In this document: in pieces, positions 1 through 6,154 of the stretch
How positions within the stretch are numbered: position 1 is the stretch's first letter
Layout of the letters: each line of letters opens with the position of its first letter
From: a virus
Taxonomy: Duplodnaviria > Heunggongvirae > Uroviricota > Caudoviricetes
DNA: 6,154 nt
IMG/VR virus record: IMGVR_UViG_2617271049_000017
Strand: one strand, 5' to 3'
Notes under the pieces: model-generated
What the model was told of the DNA's origin: nothing
The model's database searches: none
What the model saw: only the letters and a program-made list of their open reading frames with translations
Program-made: the position numbers and the translations under genes

Positions 1-28
1 TTAATTTCGATTATTTTTCCCGGATGGA

Positions 29-84
29 AAATTCTTAGAAACCGATCACATACAGCTGCATTTATTAAGGTTATCATCCGTTTC
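29..84 (+). promoter_or_regulatory. Putative CRP-dependent class II sigma70 promoter of cyaR: CRP half-site TCACA at 46..50 (site centred near -42.5), -10 TATCAT at 72..77, inferred +1 at 85
   Basis: Seen in sequence: a perfect TCACA half-site with a weak partner ttaga 6 bp upstream; a TATCAT hexamer 7 nt upstream of the proposed sRNA 5' end; the -35 region is poor (cataca), as expected for a CRP class II promoter. Layout inferred by eye, not mapped. Confidence 0.45.
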
Positions 85-135
85 GCTGAAAAACATAACC
101 CATAAAATGCTAGCTGTACCAGGAACCACCTCCTT

Positions 136-171
136 AGCCTGTGTAATCTCCCTTACACGGGCTTATTTTTT
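136..171 (+). terminator. Rho-independent terminator of cyaR (11-bp stem 136..146 / 153..163, loop tctccc, U-tract 164..171)
   Basis: Checked base by base: agcctgtgtaa pairs with ttacacgggct (one G-U wobble), followed by tatttttt. Confidence 0.7.
145..171. other. P2-type attachment-site core (27 bp, aatctcccttacacgggcttatttttt; reverse complement AAAAAATAAGCCCGTGTAAGGGAGATT), marking the host/prophage junction
   Basis: The 27-mer matches my recollection of the P2 attP/attB core. It lies about 100 bp downstream of the ogr stop, where P2 attP sits. The junction cannot be placed more precisely than the core from this window alone. Confidence 0.6.
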
Positions 172-205
172 ACGCGTAACACAATGAAATAAAAGGATTT
201 ATTTC

Positions 206-230
206 TGGTCACGTCCACACATTGACCACA
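206..230 (-). promoter_or_regulatory. Candidate integrase arm-type binding sites in the phage arm: direct heptamer repeats TGTGGAC (213..219) and TGTGGTC (224..230) as read on the minus strand, 11 bp apart
   Basis: Seen in sequence: two near-identical heptamers at one helical-turn spacing between the att core and the ogr terminator. Assigning them to Int binding is inference. Confidence 0.3.
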
Positions 231-233
231 TCG

Positions 234-260
234 ACAAAAAAGCCCCTCGACTGAGGGGCT
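234..260 (-). terminator. Rho-independent terminator downstream of ogr, ending the late tail operon and ogr transcripts
   Basis: Perfect 8-bp GC-rich stem (241..248 agcccctc / 253..260 gaggggct), 4-nt loop, followed on the minus strand by a TTTTT run (236..240); it starts 12 nt after the ogr stop codon. Confidence 0.7.
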
Positions 261-272
261 TCCTGTTTGTAA

Positions 273-491
273 TTACATCCACATAATTTGCTGCCCTGAC
301 GGCAACGGGTGCGGTCTTACGGCGTGGACTTCTCCCGGCTTCACGATGTATCGCTGTACCGACTCATAAGTGATGAATGTGGCGCTGCAATTCACGTTCT
401 GACACTGGTGATAACGCTCTTTTGTCGTGTCAGTGATATAGCGACTTGTACGCGCATGTGCGGCATGCTGGCATAAAGGACAATGAAACAT
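273..491 (-). CDS. ogr: Ogr, zinc-finger late-gene transcriptional activator (72 aa)
   Basis: The translation MFHCPLCQHAAHARTSRYITDTTKERYHQCQNVNCSATFITYESVQRYIVKPGEVHAVRPHPLPSGQQIMWM has the Cys4 motif (CPLC...CQNVNC) and matches my recollection of P2 Ogr. The start at 491 is preferred over the 93-aa ORF start at 554 because AGAGGTG lies 6 nt upstream of it. Confidence 0.9.
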   Translation of the reverse strand: MFHCPLCQHAAHARTSRYITDTTKERYHQCQNVNCSATFITYESVQRYIVKPGEVHAVRPHPLPSGQQIMWM

Positions 492-525
492 CGCGAGCAC
501 CTCTTCCGGTTTTGTTGATGGTGCC

Positions 526-554
526 ATTTTAGTTAATTTATCCTTATAAAACAA
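526..554 (-). promoter_or_regulatory. Putative sigma70 promoter of ogr: -35 TTGTTT (549..554), 17-bp spacer, -10 TAAAAT (526..531), read on the minus strand
   Basis: Seen in sequence: hexamers with canonical 17-bp spacing in the AT-rich D-ogr intergenic region, placing +1 about 30 nt upstream of the ATG at 491. Not mapped. Confidence 0.35.
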
Positions 555-572
555 ACAGATAAATAAATTACA

Positions 573-1570
573 TCACTCATCATCTTCTGTTTCGTACTCC
601 ACATCAGAAAGCCTGACCTCAAGCTCCAAGGACGTCGTGAAGCCGCTATTATTCAGAAAATGTGTCACCTTAGTGATTGTCCAGTCCTGCTCGTCTATGA
701 CGCGCTTAAAGCCTGATACTTTAACCGGTGTTTCCGTGTAAATATCAGCACGACCGGTAGCCAGGCTGATGGAGAACTCCGCAACGCCCCGTTGCAGTTT
801 ATCCCACTTCGCCTGAGCGGCACGCATGGCCTGTGCTTTCGTGGCATATACCGTGGTCAGGGCAAAAACGTTGTCAGCCTCACCGGCCATGTATTCACCT
901 TCGCGCGCTTCCGGTACTTTTGGCGCTTTCTTCTGCGTGACCGGTTTCGCTTTCGGGTGCTCCAGTGCGCGCAGGTGTTTTTCTTTCTTTTTGCGTTTCA
1001 GTTTTACCTTCTGCTTTTGCGGCTTCGGGTCTTTGGTGTGTAACCACTTTGCCGTTACGCCGGTATAGGCTCCACGGTCAGCAATCGCAAAATGATGGCG
1101 GTCGCCGTCGCTGCGGGTGATGGTGACCTGCGGGATTTTTTTACCGCTGGCCGTCACCCCCTGCCCCGCTTTGNNNNNNNNNNTGCACCGAGTGTGGTGT
1201 CATGCCAGGAGCCTTCCCGGCGGGAATTGAGCGTCCCGCGGAAATCTGCACTCCGGGCGCGGATGGTGACCACATCCGGCGCGCCCCGGTGTTCAACCTC
1301 ATCAACGGTGAATTTCCCTTTGCATACCAGGGCAAAACCTTTCCAGCCGATATACACCGTCAGGACAGCGCCACGAACCGGCAGCCCGACCTGCCCGTCG
1401 GCATCGTTCAGTTCAATATCAAGCTGGTCAGCCTCAAAGCCCCGGTTATCCGTCAGGGTCATGCTCATCAGACGGTCGCTGATATTGCCGGTAATATCCC
1501 TGCTGTCGAGCATCAGCATGTAATCCGGCGTCAGCGTACTGCCTGCATCAAATGTCAGTGCATCCAGCAT
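573..1570 (-). CDS. D: Tail protein gpD (late gene D, tail-spike/baseplate-hub associated); interrupted by the N-run at 1174..1183, across which the reading frame changes
   Basis: The N-terminal 129 codons (1570..1184, MLDALTFDAGSTLTPDYMLM...WHDTTLGA) and the C-terminal 199 codons (1172..576, KAGQGVTASGKKIPQVTITRSDGDRHHFAIADRG...EVRLSDVEYETEDDE) both look like P2 gpD. The two halves are in different frames relative to the 10 N. Confidence 0.85.
1174..1183. other. Run of 10 N inside gene D (assembly gap or masked bases)
   Basis: Ten ambiguous bases; the flanking gpD halves are out of frame across them. Confidence 0.95.
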
Positions 1571-2049
1571 TATGCCGCCCCCGTCATACCCGTGAATCTG
1601 GTCGCCATACTGCCAGCTTTACCGATGAGCGATTCCGTCTGTTTACCGATATCGCCATAAAGCGCGGCCAGTGATTCATCAACGCGGGTGAGCGACAGCG
1701 TAAAATCAATTTTCCGGGGTGTGCCGTCTGCAAAGAAAATACTCCCTGTTTCACTCACCCTGCTGATGACATACATGCCGTAAATCATGCCGGTGCCATC
1801 CAGCAACGGCCACGCCCGGCCTTCCTCTGCCATCAGCCTGAGCGTGGTCATCGTCAGCTTTCCGCCGGTCAGTTCGGGATAAAGCACACCGGCAAGCGTG
1901 ATGTTTTCCTCGCCAACGCCGAGAAACTGGTAGGCATCCCGTTTACCGATACGGGAATTTGACGGCCAGCGATAATCTGATTCACGCTGCATGGTCTGGT
2001 GTGGCAGCGTCTGGCGCATAAAAACAAACATACCTAACGCGAGCATCAT
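1570..2049 (-). CDS. U: Tail protein gpU (tail terminator/completion protein, 159 aa)
   Basis: 159-aa ORF MMLALGMFVFMRQTLPHQTMQRESDYRW... in the syntenic position between T and D; strong RBS AGGAGGTGA upstream; its stop overlaps the D start as TAATG. Confidence 0.9.
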   Translation of the reverse strand: MMLALGMFVFMRQTLPHQTMQRESDYRWPSNSRIGKRDAYQFLGVGEENITLAGVLYPELTGGKLTMTTLRLMAEEGRAWPLLDGTGMIYGMYVISRVSETGSIFFADGTPRKIDFTLSLTRVDESLAALYGDIGKQTESLIGKAGSMATRFTGMTGAA

Positions 2050-2063
2050 TTTTCGTCACCTCC

Positions 2064-4505
2064 TTAACCGTCATGCATCATGCTGGCACGGGCGCGCGCA
2101 CGTTTATCCCGCTCGTATTTTTCGAGCGCATCCTGTAACTGGCGGTCAAGCTGTGTCCCCGGCGCAGTACCACCGGTCAGGCTGATGTGATATTCGTTTT
2201 TACTCTGGTCCACATAAGAGCGGCCAGCCGGTGCCGTAACCGGCTGATAAGCCTGATAGCCTGCATAAGAGCTGGTCGCCGGAATATAACCACCGCTGCC
2301 ATACGTGGCGGCTTGAGTTCTGGCGACGGTCTGGTCAAGTGTGTCTGACTCTTTGTTGATAACACCGAGTTTTTCCAGTACCCAGTCAATTCCGCTGCGC
2401 AGTTTGTTGAACGCATTAAGCGGCAGCATCAGCGCGTCAGCCAGTGCCTGCCCGAACATGACGCCCGTGTCACGGCAACGGTTCAGGGTGTCCTGGGTGG
2501 CTTTAACCGGAGCAATCAGGTTTGTAAACCACTGCCACGTGGCCTGTAACTTTTCGCCCAGCCAGTCAAACACCGGCTTCAGTGGCGTGAACAGCTCCCC
2601 CACCGGCGCAAATGCCGCTTTCAGCCCTTCCATCACACCGCCAAAGAATGCGCTGACAGGCTCCCAGTATTTACGGATAAGCAACGCCCCGGCGACAATG
2701 GCAGCCACCACGGCCACAACCGGCCAGCTAATCGCACCGATGGCCGTCATAACGGCACTACCAACCGTCGTGAAGATTGCCCCCATTGCGCCTGCTGCCG
2801 CGATAATGGCATTGATGCCGGTGATAACCGGCCAGGCTACAAGACCAATGGCACCGATGATGCCAGTAAGCGCCAGCGCGCCACCGACAATGAGGCCGAT
2901 GGTTGACGCCAGTGATTTGTTTTTCTGGATCCAGCCGTCGAGTTTTAACACATACTTTGTGGCCGTCTGCGTGAGCTTACGCAGTGCGCCTTCCTGCTGG
3001 TCAAACAGGTCAGTCCCCACCGCCTCATAAGCGGACTGAAACTCCTTAAAGTCACCGCCGAGGTTGTCCTGCATGATATTTACCAGCTCGGCGGTCTTCC
3101 CGTCTGAGGCTTTAAACGCAGCGGTCAGTTTGTCCAGCTTTCCAGTTGAGGCGGCAGTCATCAGCACGGCGGCGGCTGAGCTGGCCTCCTCCCCGAAAAT
3201 AGTTTTCATGTATTCAGCCTGCTGGGCAGTACCGAGCCGGTTTTTCTCAAAACTGGCCTGCANNNNNNNNNNAAATACTGGTCGAGTATTCCCTTTACTG
3301 TCTGAGGTTTTCACGCCAAGCTCTTTCAGTGCATCCCATGCTTTTCCCGTCGGTGCCTGCAGGCGGCTTAACACGGCACGGCTTCCCGTCCCCGCCATTG
3401 AACCGGTAATTTTTGCATCATGCAGCGCCCCGACCATTGCGGCGGTTTCTTCAATGCTGACACCAGCATTTTTTGCCACAGGTGCGGCATAGGTCAGCGC
3501 ATCGCTCATGCCATCAAAATCGGCGGCGGTTTTGTTCATCGTCATGGAGAGAACATCCCCGATATGAGCGACCTTATCGTTTGAAAGCTGAAAGGCGGAT
3601 TTCATCCCCATCAGCAGGGCGGCGTTTTCTTCCATCGTGCGACGGTTCGCCAGCGCCATATTCAGCGTGACCGGAGTTGCCGCCTGAATGGCATCAACAT
3701 CCCCACCGGCTTTCGCAATAATAATCTGCGCACCGGCTGCATCATCTGCCGAGGCTGCGGTATTGTCGCCGAGCTGGCGCGCCTGCTTGCGTAGTGCAGC
3801 CATTTCAGCGGAGTCTTTTGCCACACCGAGCACAGCCTGCAATTCTGAGTTTTTCTGCGCAAACTCATAACCGGGCATCAGCAACTTAACTCCGGCCATC
3901 GTTCCCGCAGCAGCAATCCCCACACCGGCAGCGCCCACCGAGGCCATATTTCCGGCCAGTTCCTTTCCGGCCTGATAACGCTGTTTTACTGCGTTAAGTT
4001 TTGCCTGTTGTGCACTGACACGCGCCAGCGCGTCACGCTGACGGTTAAGCTGTGCGGTGGTTTCACTGATACGGTTTTTCAGTCCCTGCTCATCATGTGC
4101 AAGATTGCGGGTATTAATTCCCACAGCGGCCAGTTCTCGCTGCTGGCGTTTAATGGAATCTGTCAGGCGGTTATATTTCGCCTGTAAGTCCTCCGCCGCA
4201 CGCTTTGCGGATTCCAGCACTTTCGCCTGAGCACGGGTCGGACGTTCGGTGTTTTTAAACTGTGTGGCAAGGGCTTCGGCTTCCTGCCGTGCCTTTTCAA
4301 GTGCATGACCAGTCACGGCAAGCTGTGCACTGGTCTTGCGGAATCCCTCAATACGGGATGCGTGACCGTTCAGCTCGCGCAGTGATTTTTGTGTTTCCCG
4401 GATATCCCCCGACAGCGACCTGCTCGCTGTGCGGATGGATTTAAACGGGCGGGATGCCTGGTCAACAGCCCTGAGCAATACCTGTAATTTTACATTGTTA
4501 CTCAT
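2064..4505 (-). CDS. T: Tail tape measure protein gpT (813 codons as read, including 4 codons over the N-run at 3263..3272)
   Basis: Very long ORF directly downstream of E/E', with an Ala/Gln/Arg/Leu-rich (coiled-coil-like) N-terminus, a long Gly/Ala/Ile-rich hydrophobic central segment (aa 531-610) and a C-terminal globular region, as is typical for tape measure proteins. The frame is continuous across the N-run. Confidence 0.9.
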   Translation of the reverse strand: MSNNVKLQVLLRAVDQASRPFKSIRTASRSLSGDIRETQKSLRELNGHASRIEGFRKTSAQLAVTGHALEKARQEAEALATQFKNTERPTRAQAKVLESAKRAAEDLQAKYNRLTDSIKRQQRELAAVGINTRNLAHDEQGLKNRISETTAQLNRQRDALARVSAQQAKLNAVKQRYQAGKELAGNMASVGAAGVGIAAAGTMAGVKLLMPGYEFAQKNSELQAVLGVAKDSAEMAALRKQARQLGDNTAASADDAAGAQIIIAKAGGDVDAIQAATPVTLNMALANRRTMEENAALLMGMKSAFQLSNDKVAHIGDVLSMTMNKTAADFDGMSDALTYAAPVAKNAGVSIEETAAMVGALHDAKITGSMAGTGSRAVLSRLQAPTGKAWDALKELGVKTSDSKGNTRPVFXXXXQASFEKNRLGTAQQAEYMKTIFGEEASSAAAVLMTAASTGKLDKLTAAFKASDGKTAELVNIMQDNLGGDFKEFQSAYEAVGTDLFDQQEGALRKLTQTATKYVLKLDGWIQKNKSLASTIGLIVGGALALTGIIGAIGLVAWPVITGINAIIAAAGAMGAIFTTVGSAVMTAIGAISWPVVAVVAAIVAGALLIRKYWEPVSAFFGGVMEGLKAAFAPVGELFTPLKPVFDWLGEKLQATWQWFTNLIAPVKATQDTLNRCRDTGVMFGQALADALMLPLNAFNKLRSGIDWVLEKLGVINKESDTLDQTVARTQAATYGSGGYIPATSSYAGYQAYQPVTAPAGRSYVDQSKNEYHISLTGGTAPGTQLDRQLQDALEKYERDKRARARASMMHDG
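3263..3272. other. Run of 10 N inside gene T (assembly gap or masked bases), frame-preserving
   Basis: Ten ambiguous bases; the T reading frame is the same on both sides. Confidence 0.95.
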
Positions 4506-4925
4506 TCGTGTTTCCGCTTCGCCGGAGCGCCTTTTCGCGCCATGTGATGAGTTCGGTCAGGCTCATGGGATACAGTTCTGATGGCGGCCAGTGAAATATC
4601 ACTGCCACATCCGCCATCAGGTCATCGACCGAGAGATTTTTTGGAAACGTCACTGCACCGAGTTCGGCGACAAAAAACCGACCACCTTACCGGCCAGCGC
4701 CACAAGGTCAGGCAGTTCCAGCGCGGCGACTTCCTGCTCGGTCAGCATCGGTGCCGTCATGCGCGGCAGCACCTTAATCAGTGCATCGACTTCGGAGTTC
4801 GCGACCGCTGCCAGACTGACACCGCGCAGCGTCCCGGCATTGGGTTTCATCAGCGTGACCTGTTCGATAACCTGCTCACCACGTTTGACCGGATTGTCCA
4901 GGGTAATGACATTTTCTTTGTTCAT
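4498..4925 (-). CDS. E+E': Tail assembly chaperone gpE+E', made by a programmed -1 ribosomal frameshift at T_TTT_TTG (4671..4677); the extension ends at TAA 4498..4500, overlapping the T start codon
   Basis: Traced codon by codon on the minus strand: after the slip the -1 frame stays open for 58 codons (FFVAELGAVTFPKNLSVDDLMADVAVIFHWPPSELYPMSLTELITWREKALRRSGNTNE) and stops at AATGAGTAA, which overlaps the ATG of T. Confidence 0.8.
4650..4925 (-). CDS. E: Tail assembly chaperone gpE (91 aa, zero-frame product)
   Basis: ORF MNKENVITLDNPVKRGEQVIEQVTLMKPNAG...KVVGFLSPNSVQ between FII and T; it contains the slippery heptamer near its 3' end. Confidence 0.9.
   Translation of the reverse strand: MNKENVITLDNPVKRGEQVIEQVTLMKPNAGTLRGVSLAAVANSEVDALIKVLPRMTAPMLTEQEVAALELPDLVALAGKVVGFLSPNSVQ
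4671..4677 (-). other. Slippery heptamer T_TTT_TTG for the E/E' -1 frameshift
   Basis: Minus-strand sequence GGT TTT TTG within E (plus strand caaaaaacc), in the position conserved upstream of tape measure genes. Confidence 0.75.
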
Positions 4926-4981
4926 GGTTTTCTCACTTCTGAATCAGGGTTAACCGGCCAGCCAGGCTGACCGTATGAAAA

Positions 4982-5500
4982 TCACAGGCCGATATTGCGG
5001 CGGTGTTGCTCCAGCCGGTCGACGCCGTTCACCTTCTCAATCATGTTGATGGTGTCAATTTCGACCAGCTCCTTACCGTCCATCGTCAGCCGGAAATAGG
5101 TGCAGACCACGGAGATTTTCGACTCAGTGTCTTCTCCCTGTTTACCCTCGCCGGTGTCGATTTCTTTCTGACGTCCACGCATGACCACTTCGACGGCCAC
5201 CGTTTCGCCGGTATCGTCGCGCTGGTAAGAGCCTGCAAAACGAATCGGCACGGCATCCACACCGGTTGCGGCGTAAAGCTCCCAGATAACCGAATCCGGG
5301 AAGCCACCGAGCGACCACTCCATTGACAGCGCATCGTCATCAAGGCCGAGGTCTACCGGTGCGCTGCCGTTCATTCCCGCACCGCGATAGTTTTCGAGCT
5401 TACGGGTCAGTTTTGGTAGCGTGACGGACTTCGCGACGCCCTGATAGCTGTAGCCGTTCAGAAAGACATTCATTAACTTGAGTTTGCGCGGCATTGCCAT
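4982..5500 (-). CDS. FII: Major tail tube protein gpFII (172 aa)
   Basis: 172-aa ORF MAMPRKLKLMNVFLNGYSYQGVAKSVTLPKL... immediately downstream of FI, with RBS GGAG upstream; syntenic with P2 FII. Confidence 0.9.
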   Translation of the reverse strand: MAMPRKLKLMNVFLNGYSYQGVAKSVTLPKLTRKLENYRGAGMNGSAPVDLGLDDDALSMEWSLGGFPDSVIWELYAATGVDAVPIRFAGSYQRDDTGETVAVEVVMRGRQKEIDTGEGKQGEDTESKISVVCTYFRLTMDGKELVEIDTINMIEKVNGVDRLEQHRRNIGL

Positions 5501-5512
5501 CGGTCAGGCTCC

Positions 5513-6154
5513 TTAATTGCTGTTAACCGAGGTGACCAGATTTGCCAGGTATTTATCGGTAATACGCTGGCGCAGGGTCAGGTTTTCAAGAGGAGGCACC
5601 GGGGTATAGTCGTAGTCGATATACAGTTTTCCGGCCTTGAGGGTTTCCGCATCGTTGGATTCTTCGCTGAACCAGCAGGTCGCATCCACGATATAGCCGT
5701 TTGTTTTCAGCTCACGGAATTTGGCATTGATGCCGTCAACGATGTCGCGAATCAGCGTTGCGGTGATGGGCTTATCCACCGCCCACATGTGCGCCTCAGC
5801 CATCGTGTCGGCCAGCACCTGCGCGGTGCGGGTGTAGTTTTCAAAGAGGAACAGCGGGTCATCAGAGCAGGTACGGTTACCCCAGAATCGGAAACCGTCA
5901 CGGCGAATCAGCGTTGTGACGCCTGACTCGTTAAGCAGGTCAGCATCGGTGCCGGACTCCTGCAAATCCCAGAATACAGATGCGCTGATGCCGGTAACAC
6001 CGTTCACCCCGACGTTGGACAGCGTTTTATGCCAGCCCTGCTCCTGGTCGATTTTGGCACGCAGACCCAGCGCACGGGCGGTGGCATACGCGGTGGCGGT
6101 GGTACTGGTGACCGTATCCCATGCGAGGAAATCCGGCCAGATGACCATCAGCTC
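5513..6154 (-). CDS. FI: Tail sheath protein gpFI, C-terminal ~213 codons only; the 5' end lies beyond the window edge
   Basis: The ORF is open to the end of the window (no start in frame; translation ...[30 protein letters not shown]...[13 protein letters not shown]), directly upstream of FII as in the P2 FI-FII-E-T-U-D operon. Confidence 0.85.

Follow-up and report, generated by a model that had tools for sequence, protein, structure and literature searches.

The 3' end of the sRNA gene cyaR as the almost certain attR junction of a P2-type prophage in Escherichia coli

The chromosomal sRNA gene cyaR almost certainly forms, with its 3' end, the ogr-proximal (attR) junction of a P2-type prophage in the stretch of DNA analysed here, which has a length of 6,154 nt and is called the window throughout. 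Positions 85..171 of the window are cyaR itself, and 145..171 are the core at which the prophage was joined to the E. coli site locI. The preliminary description of this DNA, which was made from the letters alone, had proposed a prophage at the 3' end of cyaR. This proposal holds, since CyaR is present in full length, DNA of the P2 type begins at position 145, and in the closest complete genome, that of MS7163, a prophage lies between cyaR and yegR. The finding is correct and already known, and nothing is added by it to phage or sRNA biology. The following features were assigned in the window:

Position 1: first base after the stop codon of yegQ/trhP, as also in strain 10 and NR329
85..171, plus strand: cyaR (ryeE) sRNA gene, 87 nt, intact (Rfam RF00112 and position 3' of yegQ/trhP)
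121..134, plus strand: internal stem-loop of CyaR with an AGGA/UCCU stem and an ACCACC loop (Rfam consensus structure and MFE fold)
136..163, plus strand: Rho-independent terminator of cyaR, arms 136..146 / 153..163, loop 147..152 (MFE fold, terminator scan)
164..171, plus strand: U-tract of the cyaR terminator, TATTTTTT (MFE fold, terminator scan)
145..171, no strand: 27-bp att core (common core O), common to P2 attP and the E. coli locI attB
172..238, no strand: phage P arm of the junction, with an IHF site at ~170..203 and an Int arm-type site at ~207..234
Within ~207..234, minus strand: two predicted Int arm-type repeats, TGTGGTCA and TGTGGACG
239..262, minus strand: Rho-independent terminator of ogr and the late F operon, convergent with the cyaR terminator (P2 L001 1595..1618)
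273..491, minus strand: ogr, late-gene activator, 72 aa (translation)
573..1570, minus strand: gene D (tail/late control D), with a gap inside (alignment with gene D of MS7163 and P2)
1174..1183, no strand: run of 10 N, a scaffold gap which stands for ~176 bp of gene D
1570..2049, minus strand: U (ORF, collinear with MS7163 and P2)
2064..4505, minus strand: T, tape measure (ORF, collinear with MS7163 and P2)
4498..4925, minus strand: E/E+E' (ORF, collinear with MS7163 and P2)
4982..5500, minus strand: FII, tube (ORF, collinear with MS7163 and P2)
5513..6154, minus strand: 3' part of FI, sheath, open to the end of the window

When the entire window was searched with the models of Rfam 15 at their gathering thresholds, CyaR_RyeE (RF00112) was the sole match. 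It covers 83..168 on the plus strand and all of the model (1-85 of 85), with 100.7 bits against a gathering score of 47 and E = 5.9e-20. In all genomes compared, cyaR is located directly downstream of yegQ/trhP. It was found in 5424 of the 5426 complete E. coli genomes, with or without ogr behind it, and 3' of yegQ in 78 out of 80 species representatives of the Enterobacteriaceae. The region upstream of the gene has the same sequence as in other E. coli. A sigma-70 consensus scan over 1..620 found no promoter; by eye, a TCACA half-site at 46..50 and the hexamer TATCAT at 71..76 are seen upstream of G85. CRP dependence of cyaR is known from the literature cited in PMC3333887. Over positions 60..180 the window reads ...TTTCGCTGAAAAACATAACCCATAAAATGCTAGCTGTACCAGGAACCACCTCCTTAGCCTGTGTAATCTCCCTTACACGGGCTTATTTTTTACGCG....

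The score of the CyaR model is equal, 100.7 bits, in the window, in the empty site of NR329 (L002) and in K-12 (L005), and the same model search gave no match in the free P2 attP or in the int-side junction of MS7163. This argues, as a statement about the sequence, that integration leaves the sRNA gene unchanged and intact, as had been supposed beforehand, and that one of the two junctions only bears the gene.

The MFE fold of 83..171 consists of a weak 5' helix, the stem-loop at 121..134, an 11-bp terminator stem and the tail UAUUUUUU at 164..171. A consensus terminator scan returned an 11-bp stem identical to that of the fold, and both give exactly those arms, 136..146 / 153..163, which the preliminary description had named. 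For the analysis of covariation, the window was aligned with cyaR from 54 species representatives of the Enterobacteriaceae, which yielded 38 distinct sequences. Across these the terminator helix is paired to 97.8%, compensatory changes occur in six of its 11 pairs, and shuffles and slid registers all fall far short of this. Such a pattern marks the hairpin, as far as it can be read from sequence variation, as a real and constrained RNA structure and not as a chance inverted repeat. The helix at 121..134 is paired to 97.4% across the Enterobacteriaceae and shows no covariation.

The core at 145..171 had been expected to supply the descending arm and the U-tract of this terminator. Both indeed belong to it in full, together with the loop and the last 2 nt of the ascending arm. 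The hairpin is formed only once the ascending arm of the host, 136..144, joins the core. A terminator of int inside the attP of the free phage was considered as well and rejected, as the fold of P2 (L001 1440..1535) is no better than that of shuffles (z = -0.70).

The 27-mer AATCTCCCTTACACGGGCTTATTTTTT occurs a single time in the window, at 145..171, and its expected number of matches in shuffles is 0, even with three mismatches allowed. It is identical in 27 of 27 positions to P2 AF063097 24356..24382, a segment annotated as 'attP' and as 'Int attP core' (Int core-binding site). On one side of this core, P2 has the Cox and P' arm sites; on the opposite side follow the IHF site, the Int P arm, the ogr/F-operon terminator and ogr. 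The architecture of the P2 core and arms is summarised in PMC3448106. The left edge was found by comparing window 120..1200 with 50,697 phage records by megablast: the homology to P2 and its closest relatives begins at query base 26, that is at window position 145. Phages of the W-phi / L-413C type, which have a different core (PMC3448106), match only from 177..185. The right edge of the host homology lies at 171 in empty sites of the strain-10 type (1..171) and at 179 in those of the NR329 type (1..179). In some strains and in the free phage P2_2H1, attB and attP remain identical for another 8 nt (172..179). The limits of 145 and 171 proposed for the core are thereby retained, with the refinement that on the right-hand side the limit of host/phage identity is not unique, as sites of the NR329 type have 172..179 in common with the phage arm.

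Positions 1..600 of the window are matched by 5424 of the 5426 complete E. coli genomes. In 1124 of the 5426, cyaR is contiguous with ogr; the others match the host part only. Strain 10 and NR329 have the gene order baeR-yegP-yegQ-cyaR-yegR-yegS with a single core and host DNA on either side. Among the complete genomes MS7163 is closest, with 99.8% identity over window 1..600, and it carries a P2-like prophage of complete length, ~36 kb, between cyaR and yegR. At the int-side end of this prophage the order is P' arm-AATCTCCCTTACACGGGCTTATTTTTT-ATGCATAAGCCC, the last of these being host DNA, with the integrase adjoining; this second core is located at ~16262..16288 of L006. We aligned the att regions of seven such sites. 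The attP of the free phage P2_2H1 consists of the P' arm, the core and ACGCGTAATACAATGAAAT..., the window of the 5' part of cyaR, the core and ACGCGTAACACAATGAAAT..., the int side of MS7163 of the P' arm, the core and ATGCATAAGCCC (host), and the empty sites of the 5' part of cyaR, the core and host DNA. Thus, the attP of P2 and of P2_2H1 combine the P' arm with the P arm, and the window and K-12 combine the 5' part of cyaR with the P arm. By its sequences this seven-way alignment reads as the classical four-site att relation.

In K-12, ogrK and a D' pseudogene are found at the locus of the window. The assignment to the yegQ-cyaR region with the K-12 remnant, made before any comparison, is therefore confirmed, the window starting right after the yegQ stop codon. 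Haggard-Ljungquist and colleagues reportedly described this remnant ('D', ogr, attR') and the 27-bp core around 1989-1992. The two core copies of K-12 differ in their right ends. Six T are present in the U-tract of the window, of P2-type phages, of NR329-type empty sites and of the K-12 copy at cyaR; seven T are present in strain-10-type empty sites and in the distal K-12 copy. The cyaR-side copy of K-12 ends on the right as the phages do (6 T + ACGCGTAA); hence the core at cyaR derives from the phage at least in its right end. In the distal copy, part of which is deleted, the end is of the host type (7 T + ATGCATAA), just as in the empty sites of the strain-10 type. These end types are what an exchange inside the core would predict. 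The preliminary description had recommended an Rfam search, a comparison with P2 attP and an alignment with K-12 and an empty site; these gave, respectively, the full-length CyaR_RyeE match, the identity in 27 of 27 positions and a junction bracketed at 145..171.

The whole arrangement almost certainly arose when a tyrosine integrase of the P2 type (Peduovirus) recombined the phage attP with the E. coli locI at 145..171. From left to right, the junction is made up of the putative host promoter of cyaR and the first 60 nt of the gene, the core, the phage P arm, the ogr terminator with ogr itself, and the late tail genes. With the same 27 bp in phage and host, strand exchange rebuilds the terminator from its loop through the descending arm to the U-tract, and the sRNA gene stays identical in sequence. 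The other junction gets a promoterless 3' fragment of cyaR only. To the anatomy of the junction, the identity of the core, the comparison of empty and occupied sites and the unchanged CyaR, all of which were observed here, we add from established P2 biology that Int and IHF would catalyse the reaction and that strand exchange would take place in the core. The window holds a single junction, with neither an integrase nor a second core; therefore, integration in this particular genome is deduced from the near-identical complete genomes.

Some observations on related strains may be added. The MS7163 prophage is defective: an IS21-family element (ISEc12) splits its major capsid gene, and its integrase is annotated as frameshifted (L006 491..4150, 15173..16182). 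Since the closest complete relative is defective, the word prophage may here mean a non-viable element. In a K-12 derivative (L005 3260..3310), a fragment of gene D is joined, with no DNA in between, to the right part of the second copy of the core (...GAGAACTCTGC|TACACGGGCTTATTTTTTT ATGCATAA). A fusion of this K-12 type between D' and the core exists also in E. coli HS-01, following a stretch of unusual composition (L007 4154..4470): after AATCTCCCT, the 3' arm of the terminator and the ogrK region are replaced there by ~320 nt almost without G. This G-poor stretch looks like an artefact of strand-biased sequencing or of assembly. If real, it would leave cyaR without a terminator in that strain.

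To the right of the core and of the phage P arm, every feature is likewise of phage origin and located on the minus strand, with the genes reading toward cyaR. The coordinates of the P arm were carried over by gap-free alignment from the annotation of P2 (L001 1526..1559 for the IHF site, 1563..1590 for the Int P arm). Both arm repeats, TGTGGTCA and TGTGGACG, agree with tgTGGaCa, the arm consensus of P2-type Int (PMC3448106), and are sites predicted by sequence comparison. The terminator scan places the ogr/F stem at 240..261. The Ogr protein of the window is identical to that of P2 in 72 of 72 residues, and the translation of FI is free of stops up to the end of the window. The prophage part of the window is 96-98% identical to P2 and its relatives and has the gene order ogr-D-U-T-E/E'-FII-FI as in P2; within the late tail region 1570..6154, Escherichia phage 899 reaches 97.6% identity and other Peduovirus genomes ~97%. 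The tape measure gene T has 813 codons, compared with 815 in MS7163 and P2, a length difference of 6 nt, and its frame is otherwise intact.

The window is a scaffold of two contigs, one with cyaR, ogr and D' and one with the tail genes, which are joined across 1174..1183. Gene D appears split into two ORFs (573..1157 and 1154..1570; 194 and 138 aa). We considered this as a sign of prophage decay and rejected it as an artefact of the scaffold gap. It is, furthermore, quite unlikely that merely a cryptic remnant of the K-12 kind (attR-ogr-D') stands beside cyaR and that the tail genes stem from another P2-like prophage, attached by the scaffolder. The 10-N gap inside gene D would permit such a false join, many E. 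coli have more than one P2-like element (at up to four places per genome), and an assembly collapse of two P2-like prophages has been documented (PMC3032704). However, the left contig carries gene D up to 1173, ~390 bp past the K-12 deletion point (~window 783), so the window is not a remnant of the K-12 type, and in MS7163, S88 and P2 a single gene D is collinear with both sides of the gap. The att junction at 145..171 would be unaffected either way, as it lies more than 1 kb inside the left contig. With the gap in D and its end in FI, the window covers a part of what may be a complete or an incomplete prophage.

Hardly conceivable is the idea that cyaR is itself a phage-borne gene which the phage brought to this locus. 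Every P2 attP does contain the 3' 27 nt of the gene, but the free phages match from 145 only and give no match to the CyaR model, and the gene is present in E. coli regardless of ogr (5424 of 5426 genomes) and 3' of yegQ in the family at large (78 of 80 representatives). We regard it as extremely improbable, too, that the 27-mer is not the recombination site, the junction lying elsewhere and the likeness to a terminator being incidental: host and phage are similar beyond 171 in sites of the NR329 type and the 'empty' flank resembles the P arm, but the edges 145 and 171 bracket exactly the stretch whose annotation as P2 attP core and Int core-binding site comes from experiments, the prophage of MS7163 has a copy of the 27-mer at each end, and a chance occurrence of this 27-mer is excluded.

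Taking 145..171 as the core at which the P2-type prophage was joined to locI, we looked at the host flank of this site where no prophage is present. The 'empty' site of NR329 (L002 3172..3968) contains a 797-bp insertion with 40% G+C which has yegR inside and starts exactly after the core. This yegR islet was recognised by comparison with Escherichia sp. E1V33 and C. amalonaticus. Over its first ~50 nt it has 82% identity with the P arm of P2 (41 of 50 aligned positions); the local score of the 'empty' flank against the P arm is 38, compared with 15.4 +/- 2.3 for shuffles, and blastn puts the flank on the annotated Int P-arm site. In the flank, ACGCGTAA (or ATGCATAA) comes first; after it, 16 nt across the IHF site are deleted, and a stretch with CTGGTCAC...CATTGACCACATCGA follows. 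Judged by sequence likeness, the flank has kept one Int arm-type repeat well, and its arm-like segment of 31 nt is located at L002 3189..3218. It is quite possible, though by no means assured, that an ancient P2-like prophage left locI behind as its attR scar and that present-day P2 re-enters beside this earlier relic. The retained arm-type Int site beside attB might then contribute to locI being the preferred site of P2. The relic P arm together with the yegR islet is possibly the sole new point here. It would also be a caution for pipelines in which the shortest interval in a species is equated with the element-free attB, a method described in PMC13586616.

Three further candidates concerning the islet were rejected. 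A decayed second core at its right end reached a score of 16, compared with 13.2 +/- 2.7 for shuffles, 944 of 5000 of which were at least as good; this is not significant. Neither is the likeness of the islet to the P' arm of P2 or the 3' end of int, with a score of 39 compared with 29.9 +/- 5.0 and a shuffle maximum of 49. The third candidate was yegR as phage cargo. Among 50,697 phage records, tblastn and blastn matched two only, vB_EcoM-720R8 and the 2.4-kb 'Phage TP', and vB_EcoM-720R8 appears to carry host flank because its record starts at the att core. In the yegR product, no Pfam family was found above threshold.

The use of this gene as a phage target is on record, and the preliminary description was right to call it known and not novel. 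According to Bobay et al. (PMC3603311), who cite Wassarman et al. 2001, ryeE in E. coli was 'previously known to be targeted by phages', and in the genome paper on E. coli W (PMC3032704, Table 2) 'cyaR RNA' is the insertion site of Wphi2 (P2), of ogr-D' in K-12 and of P2*B. The window agrees with P2 at locI and with attR-ogrK-yegZ(D') of K-12 in the 27-bp core, the P arm, ogr and the position between yegQ/cyaR and yegR. Compared with the K-12 remnant it contains much more of the phage (D past the K-12 breakpoint, U, T, E, FII and FI). From canonical P2 it differs at 172..184 (ACGCGTAACACAA versus ACGTACAATAAAT), where it is like the Peduovirus P2_2H1 and the K-12 remnant.

The same logic is known from integration into the 3' ends of tRNA and tmRNA genes, such as that of phage 186 in tRNA-Ile and of Fels-2/SopE-phi in ssrA, where the core copies the 3' end of a structured RNA and the gene is restored (PMC3448106, PMC3603311). 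Unlike these sites, the target in cyaR is the terminator of an Hfq-type sRNA and not a tRNA-like acceptor/T-arm, and the core is short (27 bp) and comprises mainly the loop, the descending arm and the U-tract. Other sRNA genes are likewise occupied recurrently by elements, as rybB by P2-type elements in E. coli W, B and Crooks and ryeB/sdsR in Salmonella (PMC3032704 Table 2, PMC3333887, PMC3603311). As described in the literature, the elements at rybB and ryeB/sdsR are set apart from the one at cyaR by different cores and different integrase specificities. The window can serve as a clean example of the rule that a structured-RNA gene is targeted at its 3' end by temperate phages with tyrosine integrases, which carry a copy of this end and thereby spare the host gene. 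For annotation, it means that the locus is fixed (yegQ-cyaR-[P2]-yegR), that the prophage boundary is given to the base and that cyaR is to be annotated as intact.

Conservation of the site was followed also outside of E. coli. In 7 out of 78 species representatives, a P arm of the P2 type is located directly after the cyaR terminator of the respective host, namely in E. albertii, Trabulsiella guamensis, two Citrobacter, Huaxiibacter and two further Enterobacteriaceae. In each case the P arm (TGAAATAA and GTCCACA/GACCACA repeats) is accompanied by a terminator of the ogr type, at ~4530..4640 of L010, L012, L035, L051, L065, L072 and L085. The cores of these seven carry the terminator variant of their own host, and the stems are fully paired. 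Judged by these cyaR-side junctions with their host-matched cores, the P2 integrase lineage appears to use the cyaR site across the Enterobacteriaceae.

A second kind of element at the cyaR gene of Enterobacter was considered and rejected; what follows 3' of the terminator there is the host gene for a 2-thiouracil desulfurase and then yegS. Enterobacter hormaechei B17-3 (CP169086.1) has a segment baeS-baeR-yegP-yegQ-cyaR of 93-98% identity to E. coli, and this high likeness extends as far as the final base of the core (L008 1..4533), at ~547.6 kb of CP169086.1. From the next base on (L008 4534..7359) the sequence is of the Enterobacter type, with 88% identity to E. asburiae and 70% to E. coli. 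This is either an exchange between genera which ended at the core or an assembly chimera. In E. albertii NBRC 107761 (L010 5509..7091), a truncated arm of the P2 type is followed by two ORFs of 258 aa and 269 aa, which we take to be cdtA and cdtB, respectively. If so, an operon for cytolethal distending toxin is located within a decayed element at the cyaR attachment site.
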